DNA of 64,000 bases, taken from positions 1,408,001-1,472,000 of the forward strand of contig CAVOKF010000005.1 of the NCBI GenBank assembly GCA_963696385.1. The letters are read 5' to 3'. The position numbers and the translations under genes are program-made. This stretch comes from an uncultured delta proteobacterium. Lineage in GTDB: Bacteria > Myxococcota_A > Polyangia > Polyangiales > Polyangiaceae. Under the pieces are notes generated by a model, which was not told where the DNA came from, did no database searches, and worked only from the letters and a program-made list of their open reading frames with translations. Positions 27,976 to 37,318 of this stretch are shown here, piece by piece (the stretch's first letter is position 1; each line of letters opens with the position of its first letter).

Positions 27976-28374
27976 ATGCCGGCCAACGAGACATCCAGTG
28001 CCCTGACCGAAGGCGTGCGCGTCACGGTGCGAAGCAGCTACGTCGCAGATCAGTCCGTGCCCGCCGCGCGACGCTACGTGTTCGCGTATACGGTCCGAAT
28101 CACGAACGAGGGGGCGGAGCCTGCGCAGCTGCGGACGAGGCATTGGGTCATCCGCGACGCAAACGGCAAGGTCGAGGAAGTGCGGGGTCCAGGGGTGGTC
28201 GGCCGTCAGCCCTACCTGAGCCCCGGAGAGCACTTCGAGTACACAAGCGGATGCGTCCTGCAGACGCCGACCGGCGAGATGCGTGGGACGTACCAAATGC
28301 AGAGGCCGGACGGGCGCGACTTCGATGCGGTCATCGCTCCGTTCTTGCTGGCCCTCCCTCACTCGTTGAACTGA
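27976..28374 (+). CDS. apaG: ApaG protein
   Basis: YVFAYTVRITN, RHWVI, VRGPGVVGRQP, YTSGC, GEMRGTY. Confidence 0.96.
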   Translation: MPANETSSALTEGVRVTVRSSYVADQSVPAARRYVFAYTVRITNEGAEPAQLRTRHWVIRDANGKVEEVRGPGVVGRQPYLSPGEHFEYTSGCVLQTPTGEMRGTYQMQRPDGRDFDAVIAPFLLALPHSLN

Positions 28375-28480
28375 GCCGAGAATGCCTGGACGGTGGCGCG
28401 AGCGGCAGTCGCGTTCCCTTGGCCGCCGACGATCTCGGGGGAGCTGTGTGGTCAGAAGGCGCCTGGGCTAAGCATCCGTC

Positions 28481-28807
28481 ATGGACGAGTCCTCGTTTCA
28501 GATGCTCGCCGACCAGGCGTTTTCTGCGATCGGCGACGCATTCGACGACGTCGACCCCGACATCGTCGACTGCGAAGTCGCTGGAAACGTCGTCACGCTC
28601 ACGCTGCCGGGCGGAAAGAGGTGCATCGTGAACACGCAGCGACCGACGCGTCAGATCTGGTTTGCGGCCAACGCGCGAGCGTGGCATTTCTCTTGGGACG
28701 CGAACACGCGGCGGTGGATGGACGACAAGGGCCGGGGCGACGAGCTCTTCGCAACGATCGCAAATGTCGTGAAGGATGCCGTGGGGCTCGATCTGGCTTT
28801 CCGATGA
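28481..28807 (+). CDS. cyaY: Frataxin homologue
   Basis: MDESSFQMLAD, GNVVTL, IVNTQRPTRQIW, WHF. Confidence 0.9.
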   Translation: MDESSFQMLADQAFSAIGDAFDDVDPDIVDCEVAGNVVTLTLPGGKRCIVNTQRPTRQIWFAANARAWHFSWDANTRRWMDDKGRGDELFATIANVVKDAVGLDLAFR

Positions 28808-29196
28808 CCACGGCCTACGAAGTCATCGGCGGCGAAATCAAGGTGCGCGCCGTGATTGGCAAGCTTTACGACAGGCTCTTCGCCGATCCCATCGTGGGTT
28901 TTTTGTTCGTGGGCAAGGACAAGCGTCACATCGTCGACCAGCAGGTCATCTTGACCTGCGCGTTTCTGGGGGGGCCCGCGCGCTATACGGGTCGACCGCT
29001 GCCGCAAGCTCATGCGGCGTTACCGCTCTTGCCCGGTCACTTCGATCGCCGTCACCGCGTTCTCTCGCAGGTTCTCGAGGAAGAAGCGGTGCCGGAGGAC
29101 GCGCGCCGAACGTGGCTTGACATCGACGAATCCCTTCGTGCGAGTGTGCTCGCGGCGGCGCGTGACGCGCGGGACAAGACCCGCGATCCCGCGTAA
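28804..29196 (+). CDS. Truncated (2/2) haemoglobin, group I-like
   Basis: YEVIGGE, YDRLFADPIVGFLF, FLGGPARYTGRPLPQAH, HFD; ATGA overlap with cyaY. Confidence 0.88.
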   Translation: MTTAYEVIGGEIKVRAVIGKLYDRLFADPIVGFLFVGKDKRHIVDQQVILTCAFLGGPARYTGRPLPQAHAALPLLPGHFDRRHRVLSQVLEEEAVPEDARRTWLDIDESLRASVLAAARDARDKTRDPA

Positions 29197-29302
29197 CGGA
29201 CGCCGCCCGTTCAGACGGCGGCGAGTCCGCGGGGAACGTCGAGTTTGTTCTCGGCCACAATGGACTGGCGGTCGTGTGTCGAAAGTGGCAACTGAGTTCG
29301 CG

Positions 29303-29896
29303 ATGAGTCAGGTTCGCAGCACATCCGGGAACGACTCGACGAATCCACCCGACACCGACCAGGCCGGCGATTCCGACGGCTTGACCGACGATCACTTGGT
29401 GACCACCCAGATGCCCACAGTGGCGAGGCCGCCAGTTCGCGTCGGTTCCGCGTCCTCGGCTGCGGCTGGCGCCTCGTCGTCGGCGCCACCCCGAGCCGTG
29501 GCGTCCTCGGCGCCCCGGCGGGACGTCGTTGCAGCTGCGGGATCGACCGGCAAAACGGCGGGCGAGGGCTCGAGCTGGTGGCGCGCGCTGCTGCAATCGA
29601 CGCGACCGAATGCGATGCCGGATCCCCTGTCCGACGCGAGAACGACGCGGCTGCGGATCGCCGTCACGTGCGTGGCTCTTGCCTTGCTTTGGATGGCCAT
29701 CGCGCTCGCGATCGGGCTGCGCGATCCTCCGTCCGACTTGCTCGCCCCCGCGATCGTAACGGCGGCCGTCGTCGTGGCCCGCGCACTCATCGCCGTGGGG
29801 CTCATCGCGTTCAGTGCGACGCTGCTCCGAGTGGCAGAGCGTCTTTTCGCCGCGGTCCGGGACGGGCGGCCGGACGACGACTCCAGCCGGAGCTGA
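29303..29896 (+). CDS. Hypothetical membrane protein (disordered N-terminus, two C-terminal hydrophobic helices)
   Basis: IAVTCVALALLWMAIALAIGL and AIVTAAVVVARALIAVGLIAF. Confidence 0.55.
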   Translation: MSQVRSTSGNDSTNPPDTDQAGDSDGLTDDHLVTTQMPTVARPPVRVGSASSAAAGASSSAPPRAVASSAPRRDVVAAAGSTGKTAGEGSSWWRALLQSTRPNAMPDPLSDARTTRLRIAVTCVALALLWMAIALAIGLRDPPSDLLAPAIVTAAVVVARALIAVGLIAFSATLLRVAERLFAAVRDGRPDDDSSRS

Positions 29897-30129
29897 GGCC
29901 ATGCGCAGTCCGCCCGCCTGCGCATTCGCGGGGCGGGGGAAGGAATCCTGCGGCTTTGGGCGGCGAAGTGGCCTTGGGCTGGACAAGCCCTGCATCGACG
30001 AAGTGGCGTTCGGCGAGCCGTGCCGTTGCCTTTGAAATAGTGTGGACGATGAGGGTCTCTCCCGACATCTCCGTACGACGCTTTGCGAGCCGGCTTCCAA
30101 GGCAGAGATGGGGGCGGGCATGGCCGCAC

Positions 30130-30205
30130 TTGACGCGCGACGGCGAGAAACCTAAAAGGATAGTCAACTCTAACATTCACGTAAGAGTGTTAGGTTAGAG
30201 TTGAC
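30130..30205 (+). promoter_or_regulatory. Candidate promoter (TTGACG-N17-TAAAAG) and palindromic operator
   Basis: Perfect 12-bp inverted repeat GTCAACTCTAAC (30163-30174) / GTTAGAGTTGAC (30194-30205); nested ACTCTAAC-N6-GTAAGAGT; AT-rich island; the -10 match is imperfect. Confidence 0.65.
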
Positions 30206-30207
30206 CT

Positions 30208-30798
30208 ATGCCCGACCATCATCGACTCCCTCTCGTGGTCCGTCGCGCCGATCCCGGCGGCGGGGCGACGGCCGATCTGGGCCTTCCAGGCGGTGACGGA
30301 TCGCCTGCGCGCGAAGACGCGCAGGAGCGCCGAGGTCTGATGCAAGTAGGCGATCTAGCACGAGAAACTGGCAAGACCGTCCGCGCCATTCGTATGTACG
30401 AAGAACTTGGGCTGCTGACGCCGGCGGCTCGATCCAAGGGTGGCTTCCGTCTCTATGCGCGCGAGGCACTGGTCCGCATCCGCTGGATCAGCACGCTCCA
30501 GGAGATGGGCTTCAGTCTGGGCGATATCCAAACCATCGTCCGTGAGTGGGAGCACATCGCGAGCGCGCCGGGCGCGATGAAGCGCATGCGGCAGGTGTAC
30601 GTGCGCAAATTGGAAGAGACACGCGATCAAAAGCTGCGGATTGAGGCGCTCGAGCGCGAACTGGAGTCGAGCGTCGAATACCTGGACACCTGCGACGTAT
30701 GCGATCCGCAGCGGCTGCTCAGCGCGTGCAACTGCTGCGATCTGCACGACAAGGAGACGGACGTGCCCGAGCTCGTTCTCGGGTTCAGAGCGCGTTGA
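30208..30798 (+). CDS. MerR-family transcriptional regulator with Cys-rich C-terminus
   Basis: [39 protein letters not shown], coiled coil, then [16 protein letters not shown]. Confidence 0.92.
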
Positions 30799-30877
30799 TT
30801 GCACGTTCAAGCGTGTCGTTTGCGCAAGCGTCAAAGGCCTACATCGGCTGGCACGAACCACGAACAAGGTAACGACG

Positions 30878-32101
30878 ATGGCTGTGAAGCTCCCGATTTT
30901 CATGGACAATCACTCGACGACGCCAGTGGATCCCCGCGTCGTGGACGAGATGATGCCGTACTTCACTACGAAGTTCGGTAACGCCGCCAGTCGCGGTCAT
31001 TCGTTCGGCTGGCAGGCCGAGGAGGCGGTCGATCACGCGCGCGAACGCATCGCTCGACTCATCGGCGCGAAGGACGAGAAGGAAATCGTATTCACCAGCG
31101 GCGCGACCGAGAGCGACAACCTCGCCATCAAGGGCGTTGCCGAGTTCTACAAGGACAAAGGCAATCACATCATCACGACCGTGACCGAGCACAAGGCCGT
31201 TCTCGACACGTGCAAGCGTCTCGAGAAGCAGGGCTTCGATGTCACCTATTTGGGCGTCGGAAAAGATGGACGAGTGGACCCCGACGACGTCAAGAATGCG
31301 ATTACCGACAAGACGATTCTCGCGAGTGTGATGCTCGCGAACAACGAGATCGGTACCGTGCAGCCTTTGGACGCTATCGGCAAAATCACCCGCGAACGGG
31401 GCGTGCTTCTCCACAGCGACGCCGTGCAGGGGATTGGCAAGGTCGACTTCGACGTCCAGAGAATGAACGTGGACCTGGCATCCTTGACGGCCCACAAGAT
31501 CTACGGGCCCAAAGGTGTCGGCGCCCTGTACGTGCGGCGTAGCCGGCCGCGTGTGAGGCTGGCCGCACAGATGGACGGGGGCGGCCACGAACGAGGAGTG
31601 CGTTCGGGGACGCTCGCCGTCCCCCTCATCGCCGGCTTTGGCAAGGCCTGCGAGATCATGACGCTTGAAGGCCAGGCCGAGGCGGCGCGGCTGCGTGCAC
31701 TGCGGGACCGTCTGCGCACGCGCATCATGACCGGTCTCGAGGAGGTGTACCTTAACGGGTCGACCGATCACGGTCTTCCGGGCAACCTGAACCTGAGCTT
31801 CAACTTCGTCGAGGGCGAAGGTCTCATGATGGCGATCAAGGATGTCGCCGTGAGCTCGGGATCGGCGTGCACGTCGGCAAGTCTCGAGCCGAGCTACGTC
31901 CTGCGCGCGCTCGGCGTGGGAGACGAGCTTGCGCACTCGAGCATTCGATTCGGGCTTGGGCGCTTCAACACCGAGGAGGAGGTCGACTACGTGGCCGATT
32001 TGGTCATCGATAAGGTGCTTCGACTTCGGGATCTGTCGCCACTGTGGGAGATGCACAACGAAGGAATTGACTTGAAGAGTGTGGAGTGGGTCGCGCATTG
32101 A
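30878..32101 (+). CDS. iscS: Cysteine desulfurase
   Basis: [23 protein letters not shown] (PLP lysine), [13 protein letters not shown]. Confidence 0.97.
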
Positions 32102-32182
32102 CGTGCATGGCCGACGTGCCCCGTGAGTGTGCGACAGTGACGACGATGCCAATCGATTTTTCAAAACGATAAGGACCGAACC

Positions 32183-32605
32183 ATGGCGTACAGCGACAAA
32201 GTCATCGAGCACTACGAGAACCCGAAGAACGTGGGAACGCTCGACAAGAGCGATCCGATGGTCGGCACCGGTCTGGTCGGCGCTCCTGCATGCGGCGACG
32301 TGATGCGGCTGCAAATCCGAGTCAACGAACAAGGCGTCATCGAAGACGCCAAATTCAAGACATTCGGTTGCGGGTCCGCGATCGCGAGCTCCTCGCTCGC
32401 CACCGAATGGATCAAGGGCAAGACGATCGACGAGGCCGAGTCGATAAAGAATTCGCAGATCGTGGACGAGCTCAATCTGCCGCCGGTCAAGATACACTGC
32501 TCGGTGCTTGCCGAAGATGCGATCAAGACTGCGATCGCCGACTACCGCAAGAAGCGGTCGGATCGCAAGGCCGCCTCTATCGCGACGTCCGACGAAAAGG
32601 CCTGA
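32183..32605 (+). CDS. iscU: Fe-S cluster scaffold
   Basis: APACGD, FGCGSA, LPPVKIHC. Confidence 0.98.
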   Translation: MAYSDKVIEHYENPKNVGTLDKSDPMVGTGLVGAPACGDVMRLQIRVNEQGVIEDAKFKTFGCGSAIASSSLATEWIKGKTIDEAESIKNSQIVDELNLPPVKIHCSVLAEDAIKTAIADYRKKRSDRKAASIATSDEKA

Positions 32606-32613
32606 CGGCAGCA

Positions 32614-32994
32614 ATGGACACGACGCATCAACAAGCCCAGGGGAAAGAGCCGAACCTTACGGTCTCGAGCGGGGCCGTCGAAGCGATCGCCAGGCAAATG
32701 AGGAAACGAGGTACGCCCGAGGCGAGCCTGCGCCTCGGCATTCGAGGTGGAGGCTGTTCGGGCTTTACGTATGTGATTGAGTTTCACGACGGCCAGCCCC
32801 ACCGACGAGATCGCGTCCTCGACTACCTGGCGACGGACGGAACGAGAGTGCGCGTCGTCGTGGATCCAAAGAGCCTCATCTATCTCAACGGTACGGTGCT
32901 CGAATGGGAACAGACGCTGATGCGCCAAGGATTCAAGTTCGCCAATCCCAACGAAAAGAGCGGCTGCGGCTGCGGAAGCTCGTTCTCGGTGTGA
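32614..32994 (+). CDS. iscA: A-type Fe-S carrier
   Basis: GGGCSGFTY, CGCGSSF. Confidence 0.93.
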   Translation: MDTTHQQAQGKEPNLTVSSGAVEAIARQMRKRGTPEASLRLGIRGGGCSGFTYVIEFHDGQPHRRDRVLDYLATDGTRVRVVVDPKSLIYLNGTVLEWEQTLMRQGFKFANPNEKSGCGCGSSFSV

Positions 32995-33506
32995 TGAATC
33001 CATTTGTGGCGCTGGGCCTGGCCCAAACGTTCGACGTCGATCCGGCTGTCGCCGAGGCAAGGCACCGCGAGCTTTCGCGTGCCTTGCACCCCGACCGCTT
33101 CGTGGGCACGAGTGCGACCGAAAAGCGCCAGGCGTTGGCGAAAGCGGTGGAAGTGAACGAGGCATGGCGGATTGTGCGGGATCCGCTGCTGAGGGCAGAG
33201 GCGTTGATCCGGCTGAGCGGTGTTTCCGTGCGAGACGATGACGGCCCCAAGGCCGATCCGGCGTTTCTGATGGAGATGCTCGAGAGGCGCGAGGCTCTCG
33301 CCGAGGCGAAGGGCGCGCGCGACCTGAGCGCTGTCCAGAGGCTCGCCGAGGCCATTCAGTCCCGAATCGGGGCGGTGCAGAGTGATCTGTCGGGCGGCTT
33401 CGCGCGCGGCGAGCATGGCTCGCTGGTTGGAAAGGTGGGGGAGCTCAGGTTCTATCGGCGCTTGCTCGACGACATTGTTGCGGTCGAAGACGAACTGGCG
33501 GCGTGA
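32994..33506 (+). CDS. hscB: Fe-S co-chaperone (J domain)
   Basis: HPDRF, NEAW...DPLLRA, DPAFLME. Confidence 0.93.
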   Translation: MNPFVALGLAQTFDVDPAVAEARHRELSRALHPDRFVGTSATEKRQALAKAVEVNEAWRIVRDPLLRAEALIRLSGVSVRDDDGPKADPAFLMEMLERREALAEAKGARDLSAVQRLAEAIQSRIGAVQSDLSGGFARGEHGSLVGKVGELRFYRRLLDDIVAVEDELAA

Positions 33507-35402
33507 ATGGCTCTATTCGAAATATTCGATCCGAAAGCGAACCCGCGGCCGGTCGGCATCGATCTGGGCACGACCAACTCCCTGGTCGCTTACGTCGCCA
33601 ACGAACGTCCCGTTGCGATTGCCGATTGCGACCTCGAGACGCTCGTACCCAGCGTCGTCGCGTATTTGCCGAATGGCGAGGTGGTTGTGGGCCGCCGTGC
33701 TGTACGGCTGGCGTCGGAGCATCCGCGCGACACGATCGTCAGTGTGAAACGGTTCATGGGTCGCGGCGCCGACGACCCCGAGACGCGCCGTCTCGGTCCG
33801 TACGCGTTCGCTCCTCCGACGGCCGGGGAGGCCAACACGGTTCGCTTCCAGATGACCGGAGGAAGAGTCGTCACTCCCGTCGAGGTGAGCGCAGAGATCT
33901 TGCGTGCGCTCAAGGCGGTTGCGGTCGACGCTTTACGGAACGTCGGTCCCGCCGTGATCACCGTTCCGGCGTATTTCGATGACGCCCAGCGGCAGGCTAC
34001 GCGAGACGCTGCGCGTCTCGCCGGTCTGGACGTCCTGCGCCTTCTCAACGAGCCTACGGCCGCGGCACTCGCGTACGGGCTCGAGAGAAAGCACAACGGC
34101 ACGTTCGCCGTGTACGACTTGGGGGGCGGCACGTTCGATGTCACGGTGCTCGTCCTCGATGAGGGGGTCTTTCAGGTGCGGGCCACCGGCGGCGACAGTC
34201 AGCTCGGCGGCGACGACATGGATCGCGCCGTCGCGCACGAATTGCTCGGAGCACTCGGTTTCGAGGGAATCCAGCAGACTCCCCAACTCGTGCGACTCGT
34301 GCTCGACGAGGCTCGCAAGGTCAAGCACGCGCTGACCGTTCAGGAGACGGTCGATGCGGGTGTGCCGGGCCAGCGTCGCCTTACGCTCACGCGTGCGCGG
34401 TTCGACCAACTGATTCGCCCTCTCCTCGAGCGCACGGGTGCTGCGTGCTTGCGTGTGTTGAGGGATGCGGGGATCAAGGCGCAGGACTTGGACGGCGTGA
34501 TTCTCGTCGGCGGTGCGACTCGCGTGCCTGCCGTGCGCCGCTATGTCGCCGAGCTTTTCAAGAGAGAGCCGATGGACGACATCGATCCGGACCAAGTGGT
34601 CGCTCTCGGAGCAGCGATTCAGGCGGACCTGCTGGCGGGGCTCGGGCAACGCGAGGACGTCGTGCTCCTCGACGTCATCGCCTTGTCGCTCGGCATCGAG
34701 GTCGGTGGTGGCGTCGTCGACCGAGTGCTGCCGCGAAATTCGACGATTCCGTGCGCTGGGCGCGCGACGTACACCACGCAGGAGGACAATCAAACGGGCT
34801 TTGAAATCCATGTGGTACAAGGCGAGCGTGAGCTCGCCGCCGACGACCGGAGCCTCGCGCGCTTCACGCTCAAAGGTATTCCTCCGATGCCGGCGGGAAT
34901 GGCACGTCTCGAGGTCACCTTCGAGGTCGATGCCGACGGGCTGTTGAGCGTGCATGCCAAGGAGCTGACGACGGGAGTCGAGCAGACGGTCGCCGTCAGG
35001 CCGAGCTACGGGCTGGACGATGCCACCGTCGAGCGCATGCTGCTCGAGGCGCTCGATCGCGGCGAGGAGGACCTCGTCAACCGGCGGCTCGCGGAGAATC
35101 GCGTCGAAGCTCGACGAATCCTCGCGGCGGCGCGCAAAGCGATCGACCTGGACGCCGATCTTCTCCAGCCCGGGGAACGATCTCGAATCGAGAGCGCGTG
35201 GGCCGCGCTCGAGAACGCCGTGTGCGGCGACGACCCGGGGCATATCCACTCGTGCGTCGAGGCGCTCGACGATGCCACCAAGGCGTTCGCAGGTCGGCGA
35301 ATGAATCGCGCCATCGCGCGGGCCATCGAGGGCAAGCGCGTCGACGCGGTCGAGCGGTCGGTGGAGCATGCCAAGGGCGTCGAGCTGGCGCACGCTCGCT
35401 GA
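33507..35402 (+). CDS. hscA: Fe-S chaperone, Hsp70 family
   Basis: MALFEI N-terminus, [23 protein letters not shown]; isc context. Confidence 0.95.
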
Positions 35403-35419
35403 CAGCGGACACGGGATTG

Positions 35420-35788
35420 ATGACGACAGTTCGCTTCAAGGGGTTCGGCGAGGTCGAAGTGCCGGTGGGTACTACGCTTCTCGAGGCCGCGACGAAGGCG
35501 CGTTTCCCGGAGGGCAGCGCGTGTGGCGGCGTTTGCGCCTGCTCGACGTGCCACCTGTATGTGACGCGGGGTGGAGCGCTCCTCAGCGAGCAGCAGGACG
35601 AGGAGGCGGACATTCTCGACAAGGCGTTCGACGTCCGCGCGATTTCCCGGCTGGGATGTCAGTCGCGCGTCGTCGGAGAGGGCGAGGTTGAGGTCGAAAT
35701 CAGTCGCGAGAGTCTGGAGGCATACGAAAACGAACACCCGGCCGAACGCGGGAAGTACACACGGCCGGCACGGGCCTCCGAGGGCTAG
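35420..35788 (+). CDS. fdx: [2Fe-2S] ferredoxin, ISC type
   Basis: CGGVCACSTCH...SRLGCQ. Confidence 0.93.
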   Translation: MTTVRFKGFGEVEVPVGTTLLEAATKARFPEGSACGGVCACSTCHLYVTRGGALLSEQQDEEADILDKAFDVRAISRLGCQSRVVGEGEVEVEISRESLEAYENEHPAERGKYTRPARASEG

Positions 35789-36016
35789 GGTCCGTTTCGT
35801 ACGTCCCGCGGAACTCGGCGTGCGCAGCTGCACCGCGAAGACGGACCACCCGCACGAGTCTTGTTTTTCCGGCGCTCCGCCCCCGAATCCCCAAACCAGC
35901 TCCCGCGGCTTGGCGAGTGGCCAATCCCGCAAGAACCAGTGCACTTGTGCATTCGCGCGGACTTGCGCAATGGCCCCCGAGTCCTGGTGCTTCCCGTCGG
36001 TCGCGGCGCGGTCGGC

Positions 36017-37318
36017 TCAGCTCAGGCGGATGCCCGGGGCCGGGTACCTCGCGCAGACGTCTTTCACCTCATCGGCGATCCCCGCAAGGCTGATCTCGTC
36101 CGAGGGTCGTTGCGTCACCCGATCGATCCAGTCCGCGATACGGAGCATGACGTCCGTGCCCATGCCGCGTGAGGTGACCGATGGTGTGCCGATGCGAACG
36201 CCCGAAGGATCGAAGGGCTTGCGTGCGTCGAAGGGGACTGCATTGTAATTGAGCACGATTCCCGCCCGGTCGAGCGCTCGTGCCAACGGCTTGCCGGTCA
36301 CCCCCTTGCCCGTCACGTCGACGAGCATGAGGTGATTGTCGGTTCCACCGGTGCTCACGCGGAAGCCGCGCTCGGCAAGAGCGCGCGCCAAAACGCGGGC
36401 GTTTTCGACGATGGCCTGCGCGTACAGCTTGAAATCGGGTCGCGCGGCCTCGTCGGCAGCGACGGCGATCGCTGCGGTCACATGGTTGTGTGGTCCGCCT
36501 TGCAGGCCGGGGAACACGGCCTTGTCGATCATGGCCCCGTACTCCTTCTTGCAGAAAATCATGCCGCCGCGCGGGCCACGAAATGTCTTGTGCGTCGTGG
36601 ACGTCACGACGTCGGCCACGCCGATGGGCGAGGGATGGACCCCACCGCATACGAGCCCCGCGATGTGCGCCATGTCTGCCACGAGGAGTGCTCCGACTTC
36701 GTCGGCAATGGCTCGGAAGGCCGCGAAATCGATGCGTCGCGGGTACGCAGTCGTGCCGCACCAAAGAAGCTTGGGACGATGTTCGCGGGCGAGATCGCGA
36801 ACCTGATCCAGGTCGATGAGATGGTCCTCCCTTCGCACTCCGTACTGGACACTCTTGAAGTACTTGCCGGTGATGGACACGGAGTGGCCATGAGTCAGGT
36901 GCCCGCCGGCCGAGAGCGATAGGCCCATAATCGTGTCGCCGGGTGCGCAGAACGCGAAATAAACGGCGAGGTTGGCGGGGCTTCCCGAGTACGGCTGAAC
37001 GTTCACGTGCACGTCGTCTGCCGTGACGTTGCCTGCGGCAGTGGAAGCGAAGAGGGTCTTGAGCCGTCCGATAGCCAACTCCTCGATCGGGTCAATCACC
37101 TGTTGCCCTTCGTAATAGCGCTTGTGGGCATACCCCTCCGAGTACTTGTTCGTAAGGACCGATCCGGTGGCCTCCATGACGGCGCGAGAGGCATAGTTTT
37201 CGCTGGCGATCAGGCGAATCTTGTCGTGTTCGAGGCGGCTCTCCTCCGCCACCAAGCGGGCGACGGCGGGATCCGATTCCGCAAGCGACGGATTGAAGGC
37301 AGCATGAGGCGAGGACAT
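36017..37318 (-). CDS. glyA: Serine hydroxymethyltransferase
   Basis: LIASEN, NKYSEGY, GGHLTHG, STTHKTFRGPRG, FPGLQGGP. Confidence 0.98.
   Translation of the reverse strand: MSSPHAAFNPSLAESDPAVARLVAEESRLEHDKIRLIASENYASRAVMEATGSVLTNKYSEGYAHKRYYEGQQVIDPIEELAIGRLKTLFASTAAGNVTADDVHVNVQPYSGSPANLAVYFAFCAPGDTIMGLSLSAGGHLTHGHSVSITGKYFKSVQYGVRREDHLIDLDQVRDLAREHRPKLLWCGTTAYPRRIDFAAFRAIADEVGALLVADMAHIAGLVCGGVHPSPIGVADVVTSTTHKTFRGPRGGMIFCKKEYGAMIDKAVFPGLQGGPHNHVTAAIAVAADEAARPDFKLYAQAIVENARVLARALAERGFRVSTGGTDNHLMLVDVTGKGVTGKPLARALDRAGIVLNYNAVPFDARKPFDPSGVRIGTPSVTSRGMGTDVMLRIADWIDRVTQRPSDEISLAGIADEVKDVCARYPAPGIRLS

Follow-up and report, generated by a model that had tools for sequence, protein, structure and literature searches.

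A MerR-family gene stands at the head of a complete isc operon in the genome of an uncultured delta proteobacterium of the Polyangiaceae (Myxococcota), and we read it as a dedicated, autoregulated and probably undescribed regulator of this iron-sulfur (Fe-S) assembly operon. We hold this reading, taken as a whole, to be moderately probable; a role as a local, autoregulated transcription factor with a conserved operator of its own is the part that comparative sequence evidence strongly supports. The analyzed window is a stretch of 64,000 nucleotides with a G+C content of about 65% (assembly GCA_963696385.1, contig CAVOKF010000005.1, positions 1,408,001 to 1,472,000 of the forward strand), and the genome from which it comes is 6.9 Mb in size and 96.4% complete. 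Fe-S supply is essential, and the sensors so far known to control it come, to our knowledge, from few families, namely IscR, RisR, and RirA, which are Rrf2 proteins, and SufR. If our reading is correct, evolution would have solved the control of Fe-S supply independently with a MerR-fold regulator, which heads ISC or SUF operons in 104 of 401 sampled Myxococcota genomes (hand count), and if the four-cysteine loop of the protein holds a cluster, the MerR family would gain a cluster-binding motif that is new to it. A literature search, which had subscription journals outside its coverage, found no MerR-type isc or suf regulator, and such MerR papers as it turned up were irrelevant.

Gene identities were assigned by Pfam and NCBIfam equivalog models with their cutoffs. 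The merR-family gene (30208..30798, + strand) encodes 196 amino acids in its long form and matches Pfam MerR_1, MerR, and MerR-DNA-bind. Its stop codon at 30796-30798 is followed by a 79-nucleotide spacer (30799..30877) and then by the ATG of iscS at 30878. All six isc genes lie on the + strand: iscS (30878..32101; TIGR02006, 656 bits against a cutoff of 643), iscU (32183..32605; TIGR01999, 230 bits against 192), the A-type carrier gene iscA (32614..32994; TIGR00049, 96 bits against 58.8), hscB (32994..33506; TIGR00714, 84.5 bits against 46.75), hscA (33507..35402; TIGR01991, 776 bits against 708), and fdx for an ISC-type [2Fe-2S] ferredoxin (35420..35788), which is matched by Pfam Fer2 and scores 73 bits with TIGR02007, under the cutoff of 132. 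A sequence-only reading of this DNA had already described a complete, co-oriented isc set, a gap of 79 bp between merR and iscS, and a MerR tail of the form C-x2-C-x8-C-x-C-C, and the sequence reads as it stated on all these points. SufB was not found in this genome, and within its family only 1 of 29 genomes gave a match; therefore, ISC is apparently the general Fe-S system here.

We examined the linkage of merR to isc in two sets of loci. The first comprised the best 80 of 596 relatives found by a scan of genome contigs, all of them Polyangiales and including Sorangium cellulosum So ce56. The second came from a 401-genome sample of the phylum, from which the best 30 matches and 20 strong ones hand-picked from other families were taken. 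In all of them (80/80, 30/30, and 20/20), iscS comes directly after merR and has the same strand, and in the 80 Polyangiales loci merR is followed by iscS-iscU-iscA-hscB-hscA-fdx in this order as far as the contigs reach. The identity of isc-linked orthologues goes down to 36 to 50%. Profile scores in the 401-genome sample are bimodal, with 104 genomes at E values of ≤1.5e-46 (hand count) and the next best at 4e-37. In genomes of family f64, the gene after merR encodes a NifS-like cysteine desulfurase (38 to 39% identical). Of 60 genomes with HscB above the cutoff, 57 read as having a strong MerR, and the other three belong to family f21, which is discussed below. No efflux or detoxification gene was linked to merR in any locus examined. 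The MerR protein has the IscR-like position, in that its gene comes first in an isc operon and a proposed operator of its own lies at the promoter, which is a matter of role and not of family membership. A wider homologue search gave 3,206 matches; identity is 80% or more throughout the best 120, those with names coming from Polyangiaceae or Myxococcota, and an exhaustive search gave 676 clusters at E values of ≤1e-10. The range that we claim is Myxococcota; possible look-alikes also turned up in Bacillota and Spirochaetota.

Across 135 loci, the distance between merR and iscS is 14 nucleotides at the median and ranges from -6 to 190, with stop and start codons often overlapping, and merR and the isc genes look like one operon from this arrangement. 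RNA-library contigs from the metatranscriptomes of two studies span the merR-iscS junction: record 1 of run X10 covers 30582-30978 with no differences, and record 26 of run X7 covers 30442-31046 with 7 differences. RNA-library cover is lacking upstream of 30193 in three runs, which we did not take as evidence of a transcription start.

The protein belongs to the MerR family by its matches to PF13411, PF00376, and PF09278 (E values of 1e-15, 1e-9, and 2e-7), and the Rrf2 winged-helix domain (PF02082) is absent from it, its Pfam matches being to MerR families only. It fits none of the characterized MerR subfamilies that we scored, since all equivalog scores are under the cutoffs: CueR, 65.8 versus 147.4; MerR, 52.8 versus 150.9; ZntR, 51.3 versus 168; CadR, 49.7 versus 151.5; SoxR (TIGR01950), 47.8 versus 116.9; and HspR (NF047375), 33.3 versus 105 bits. 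Relatives are annotated as copper-efflux or zinc-responsive regulators, labels that their genomic context does not support. Residues are numbered here in the 152-residue form starting at the Met encoded at 30340, where the helix-turn-helix begins, unless the 196-residue form is named. By sequence, solved structures can be matched to no more than residues 1 to about 119. The AlphaFold model, for which a 40-row alignment served as input, has a MerR fold with a mean predicted local distance difference test (pLDDT) score of 93.8; it comprises an N-terminal winged helix-turn-helix, a long dimerization helix (76-118), and, after a loop, two more helices, one short (127-132) and one at the end (144-150). 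Its Foldseek matches include CueR, CadR, SoxR, and BmrR.

The loop after the dimerization helix carries the most constant feature of the family. It is encoded at 30691..30738 (+ strand), with Cys codons at 30691, 30700, 30727, and 30736, and the four residues C118, C121, C130, and C133 (C162, C165, C174, and C177 in the 196-residue form) are invariant in 129/129 unique isc-linked orthologues, which were picked by iscS adjacency and not by motif. The sequence-only reading had proposed a metal or cluster site of five cysteines; four of these stand, while the fifth, C132 (codon at 30733), is retained in only 30/129 orthologues. H136 is retained in 101/129. Among the best 150 representatives of clusters at 50% identity, 82 have a strict CxxC-x(4-16)-CxxC pattern, and most of the others are fragments, frameshifted reads, or CxxxC variants. 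From these alignments, the family motif is C-x2(3)-C-x8-C-x2-C followed by P-x-L-V-x-G, with four cysteines and not five. C118 aligns with the first ligand Cys of Escherichia coli SoxR, ZntR, and CueR, where the dimerization helix ends; therefore, the cysteines occupy the canonical sensor loop of the MerR family and not an appended domain. The same alignment confirms the earlier remark that the spacing in E. coli SoxR, C-x2-C-x-C-x5-C, differs from that of the window protein.

Two further elements flank this core. The C-terminal helix PELVLGF (30766..30786, + strand), which corresponds to model helix 144-150, is conserved, with P143 kept in 122/129, L145 in 121/129, and G148 in 112/129 orthologues, and with V146 within the range of 112 to 122. 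At the other end, an N-terminal extension encoded at 30208-30339 starts with the motif MxDHHRLPL(L/V) (30208..30240, + strand) on a variable linker. The pattern M-x(0-9)-[RHQ][LIVM]P[LIVFM] is present at the extreme N terminus of 77 unique orthologues of the Polyangiales type, and the strict form R[LIVM]P[LIVFM] in 75/129, and it is missing from more distant orthologues. Because this motif is conserved, we prefer the 196-residue reading from the ATG at 30208. Intramolecular docking of the motif was considered and is unsupported, as residues 1 to 40 have pLDDT scores of 44 to 59 in the full-length AlphaFold monomer. A complex prediction of the N-terminal 44 residues with the HscA substrate-binding domain scored 0.03 against a mark of 0.32, which is evidence neither way.

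A 22-bp palindromic box, ACTCTAAC-ATTCAC-GTAAGAGT, lies at 30167..30188 in the 310-nucleotide intergenic region upstream of merR that contains the merR promoter, and we propose it as the operator. Its consensus across loci is ACYCTNAC-N6-GTNAGRGT. When up to 3 of 14 mismatches to ACTCTNAC-N6-GTNAGAGT are allowed, which is the criterion used throughout unless stated, the box is found upstream of merR in 119/135 loci versus 1/135 shuffled controls. From 82 unique segments, the anchored consensus reads AAC(t)CTnACGc.tACGTAAG(a)GT. A third half-site, GTTAGAGT (30194..30201), is seen in close relatives in the anchored alignment and is weakly conserved beyond them, and the 12-nucleotide arms at 30163-30174 and 30194-30205 are perfect inverted repeats. 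The arms show conserved sequence, unpaired N positions, and no compensatory change, so we read the box as a DNA site. A perfect copy occurs once in the 6.9-Mb genome, at the merR site, and once in the 13-Mb genome of So ce56, where the box is ACCCTCACGCGCACGTAAGGGT. At up to 3 mismatches, this genome holds 43 sites versus 47 for a reversed-pattern control, and in four f41 genomes the genome-wide counts at up to 2 mismatches are near the control; genome-wide scans at low stringency are therefore uninformative, and only sites adjoining isc or suf were used. A palindromic operator of about 21 to 22 bp is a MerR-type trait, and the box shares its 22-bp length and its outer pentamers with the ZntR operator consensus ACTCTGGAGTCGACTCCAGAGT quoted in the accessible text of PMC1526738. 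We consider it very probable that the MerR protein binds this box.

The box is placed at a tentative promoter, found by eye, that consists of TTGACG (30130-30135), a 17-nucleotide spacer, and TAAAAG (30153-30158) on the + strand; the box starts 8 nucleotides past the -10-like hexamer, and the first base of the -35-like hexamer is position 30130, where the sequence-only reading had let the locus begin. In 79/129 unique upstream regions, a TTGACN-N16-18-TAnnnn site lies beside the box. The box is just downstream of this site in 49 regions, abuts the -35 hexamer in 22, lies inside a spacer of 17 to 18 bp in 4, and overlaps the site otherwise in 4. This placement, downstream or abutting with no spacer of 19 to 20 bp, points to steric repression rather than the promoter distortion of the SoxR and CueR type, and with such a nonclassical geometry, the mode of action likely differs from that of SoxR.

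The same regulator and box recur at suf operons. A metagenome scan seeded with distant members yielded 80 loci, with the four-cysteine motif in 79; iscS follows in 50 and, as counted by script, an A-type carrier gene in 13. According to NCBIfam models and tblastn, the operon headed by the carrier-linked clade is sufA-sufC-sufB-sufD-sufS; locus L167, for example, gave 346 bits for SufC, 736 for SufB, 282 for SufD, and 391 for SufS. In this clade, sufC or sufB lies downstream of merR in 16 loci, and three more contigs end after sufA. The box is present in 12/12 and 8/8 testable suf-linked regions versus 40/45 isc-linked ones. In a quick IQ-TREE phylogeny of 227 rows, all the four-cysteine proteins stand apart from SoxR, CueR, and ZntR (SH-like approximate likelihood ratio test [SH-aLRT] support of 94), and the isc-linked, suf-linked, and extracytoplasmic function (ECF) sigma factor-linked proteins form one 205-row clade (SH-aLRT, 96), within which the suf-linked set is a 19-row subclade (SH-aLRT, 99). 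The box also occurs, at up to 2 mismatches, upstream of sufB in 5/7 f41 genomes that have merR elsewhere and upstream of sufA-sufBCD in genome G325 without an adjacent merR, and genome G245 has a hybrid operon, merR-iscS-iscA-sufBCDS. In about 85 kb over 13 loci, every box with up to 2 mismatches precedes a suf or merR-isc operon. Genome G241, in which merR is ECF linked, has a coding open reading frame (ORF) abutting the iscS of an isc-like locus and no box there.

Smaller observations concern relatives in other contexts. Second copies in f41 genomes (L145-L148) lie between a deoxynucleoside kinase gene and an ECF sigma factor gene in 4/4 loci, with the box present, and QueG is encoded near this arrangement in two of the four. 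Two metagenome contigs (L226 and L245) encode a long-branch pair of four-cysteine MerR genes followed by a gene for an ErpA-like carrier, and in L226 genes for NuoB and a 2-oxoacid:acceptor oxidoreductase come next.

Where the MerR protein is missing, the known Rrf2 solution seems to be in use. According to the accessible text of PMC9973013, Myxococcus xanthus has an isc operon without iscR, and RisR, an Rrf2 protein of subgroup IS6 encoded upstream of suf, represses isc and suf in its holo form via the promoter palindrome TtGAC-N7-GTCCt; the word MerR is absent from the paper. In the four f21 genomes that we examined (L158-L161), isc has neither merR nor an adjacent regulator, and a RisR-type box, TTGAC-N7-GTCCA (e.g., TTGACTAGATTGGTCCA), lies 83 to 131 nucleotides upstream of iscS in 4/4, where the best match to the MerR box has 6 to 7 mismatches. 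Every one of these genomes has an Rrf2 gene that is unlinked, and a search for SufB found none. Judged by sequence, the f21 boxes extend the RisR site published for M. xanthus to relatives that have ISC only. In merR-type upstream regions, the RisR box occurs in only 1/129, and in our window a T(t/g)GAC-N7-GTCC(t/a) box has no match in 29900-30900 and 7 matches in the whole window versus 10.8 expected by chance. This distribution, 4/4 at merR-less isc versus 1/129 at merR-type loci, supports the earlier proposal that merR replaces an Rrf2 regulator.

That proposal had started from the absence of an Rrf2 or iscR gene in the window, which holds, as the two PF02082 matches in the genome both lie elsewhere. 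The only one above the cutoff is on another contig (G000:C7:566606-566986) and unlinked to isc; it encodes a protein with three Cys that is NsrR-like (125 bits with the NsrR model versus 51 with the IscR model) and 28 to 33% identical to the Rrf2 proteins of the f21 genomes. In loci L003-L152, Rrf2 genes were not detected. The ORF 3' of the NsrR-like gene (L001 1940-3019, on C7) has two CxxCH motifs, CYTCH and CGIVCH, which suggests a diheme cytochrome c.

The mechanism that we favor combines an Fe-S cluster on the loop with repression by the holo form. In it, merR would be transcribed as the first gene of merR-iscSUA-hscBA-fdx, and a dimer of the MerR type would bind ACYCTNAC-N6-GTNAGRGT at or just downstream of the promoter. 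The four-cysteine loop would ligate an Fe-S cluster supplied by the controlled machinery itself; the cluster-bound form would repress, and cluster loss through iron or sulfur shortage or oxidants would relieve repression. Such feedback logic would be analogous to that of IscR and RisR. Among possible ligands we think an Fe-S cluster the somewhat likelier one, and, given a cluster, we see an even balance on whether the holo form is the repressor. A far-reaching extension, which we regard as very doubtful, would make the protein, next to SoxR, a second class of MerR regulator with a bound Fe-S cluster, one that displaced Rrf2 as the master of ISC and SUF across much of Myxococcota, with the RLPL motif serving in Polyangiales as a handle through which HscA/HscB or another chaperone co-represses, like DnaK for HspR, so that the promoter would respond to free chaperone capacity as well as to cluster occupancy.

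Several results weigh against the favored reading. The spacing CxxC...CxxC is also a common Zn motif, so that the choice of ligand is ours and not the motif's, and paralogues with the same spacing but no isc-type box occur in the same phylum (11 loci, L133-L143). These paralogues have the tail LPRAxxLLW and 30 to 34% identity, and their neighbors are GTP cyclohydrolase I (folE), DUF2203, and short-chain dehydrogenase/reductase (SDR) genes or genes for a LON-domain protein and GTP cyclohydrolase II; with the same four cysteines found next to folE or an ECF sigma gene, Fe-S sensing does not follow from the motif alone. The Cys-bearing Rrf2 protein of this genome could act in trans. The RNA-library contigs over the merR-iscS junction may stem from DNA carry-over and thus support co-transcription only weakly. 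The box is lacking at up to 3 mismatches in 15/129 unique upstream regions, and 35/129 have no promoter-like site near it. A stricter promoter scan of 29000-36200 gave 0 promoter-like sites, missing the site at 30130..30158 because its second hexamer lacks the final T, and among consensus matches in the 129 regions none has a 19- to 20-bp spacer with the operator inside. Given this geometry and these scans, the sign of regulation is a guess. Of the earlier claim that the protein autoregulates the operon, what stands is the conserved palindrome at the promoter, its co-occurrence with merR, and the operon-like layout.

The main rival accepts the protein as an isc and suf regulator but has the four cysteines hold Zn as a thiol redox switch or form disulfides directly. 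Oxidants would then strip Zn from the site and alter how the protein binds DNA or distorts the promoter, and oxidative stress, not feedback from cluster occupancy, would raise assembly. CxxC-x8-CxxC is, as generally known, a frequent Zn(Cys)4 spacing, the paralogues with the same motif by an ECF sigma gene or by folE and SDR genes would suit a general redox sensor, and all the linkage and box evidence fits equally well. We nevertheless think a Zn-thiolate switch fairly unlikely, as the loop sits at the position of the SoxR cluster site, nothing favors Zn, and the characterized isc and suf regulators all sense an Fe-S cluster, namely, IscR, SufR, and RirA as commonly held and RisR according to the accessible text of PMC9973013. 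A classical mononuclear metal sensor that induces isc or suf in response to Fe(II), or to a toxic thiophilic metal that acts as a poison of Fe-S assembly, would agree with the nearest profiles (CueR, ZntR, MerR, and CadR), the Foldseek matches to CueR and CadR, the ZntR-like shape of the operator, and the public annotation of homologues as copper or zinc responsive. The equivalog scores far under their cutoffs, the lack of a linked efflux or detoxification gene, and the lack of a 19- to 20-bp spacer make it unlikely, and a place at the head of the cell's only general Fe-S system fits homeostatic control better than control by toxic metals.

The cysteines may instead be purely structural, with the signal arriving elsewhere, for example, through a partner that binds the N-terminal RLPL motif or the C-terminal PELVxGF helix. 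HspR, a MerR-family protein, is known to use DnaK as co-repressor, and both the N-terminal motif on its variable linker in 77 orthologues and the conserved C-terminal helix would fit a partner. Orthologues below about 50% identity, however, keep the linkage, the four cysteines, and the box without the N-terminal extension, and the cysteines lie at the sensor position of the family, so we judge a structural role quite improbable. That merR is an unrelated neighbor and isc is controlled by a trans-acting factor such as the lone three-Cys Rrf2 protein is hardly credible: the linkage holds down to 36% identity across families and follows both ISC and SUF, the box co-occurs, the promoter has no RisR box, and the Rrf2 protein is NsrR-like, at only 28 to 33% identity to those of genomes with RisR boxes. 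An Fe-S-sensing MerR regulator thus stays our preferred reading.

Compared with known systems, the predicted regulator resembles E. coli IscR in being encoded by the first isc gene, in its autoregulation, in its Cys-ligated sensor, and in its control of ISC and SUF (common knowledge and the accessible text of PMC9973013), but IscR has an Rrf2 fold, three Cys and a His as ligands, and another operator, whereas the window protein has MerR domains only. RisR comes from the same phylum and also controls isc and suf via a promoter palindrome, but it is an Rrf2 protein encoded upstream of suf, and its box is absent from the isc promoter of the window (RisR as in the accessible text of PMC9973013). 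SoxR shares the fold, and its four-Cys loop starts at the same aligned position, yet its spacing is C-x2-C-x-C-x5-C in place of C-x2-C-x8-C-x2-C, it has neither the PELVxGF helix nor the N-terminal extension, and, as stated in the accessible text of PMC1526738, it acts at a long-spacer promoter, which was not seen at merR-isc loci. ZntR, CueR, and CadR share the fold, and the 22-bp palindrome with its ACTCT...AGAGT ends is like the ZntR consensus, but they differ in ligand residues, efflux targets, and 19- to 20-bp spacer promoters. HspR and CarH are generally known as MerR-fold repressors that occupy promoters, HspR autoregulating an Hsp70 operon, but they lack the four-Cys loop, and CarH uses a B12 domain.

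Upstream of merR on the same strand (27976-29896), in an order that is conserved among relatives, lie apaG, cyaY for a frataxin-like iron donor, a truncated globin gene, and a small membrane ORF (29303-29896) that has two C-terminal hydrophobic segments, is kept in 14 loci, and is followed by a terminator-like hairpin at 30011-30025. An Rfam search of 29000-36500 gave no match. A 3.5-kb contig from a peat metatranscriptome (run X18) covers merR through iscU (window 29700-32300) of a relative that is about 95% identical, and it has 104 other letters in place of 29914-30122; the stretch just upstream of the merR promoter thus varies between strains. Elsewhere in the genome (G000:C4:1052000-1070000; L157), a second iscU-iscA-hscB-hscA-fdx set, 58 to 90% identical to that of the window, sits without merR and without the box in a nif cluster that encodes NifH, NifB, NifW, NifX/NafY-like proteins, and NifS together with an A-type carrier and an LRV Fe-S protein. 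With a nif cluster that has its own isc set, this Polyangiaceae genome appears to be that of a diazotroph with a dedicated chaperone set.

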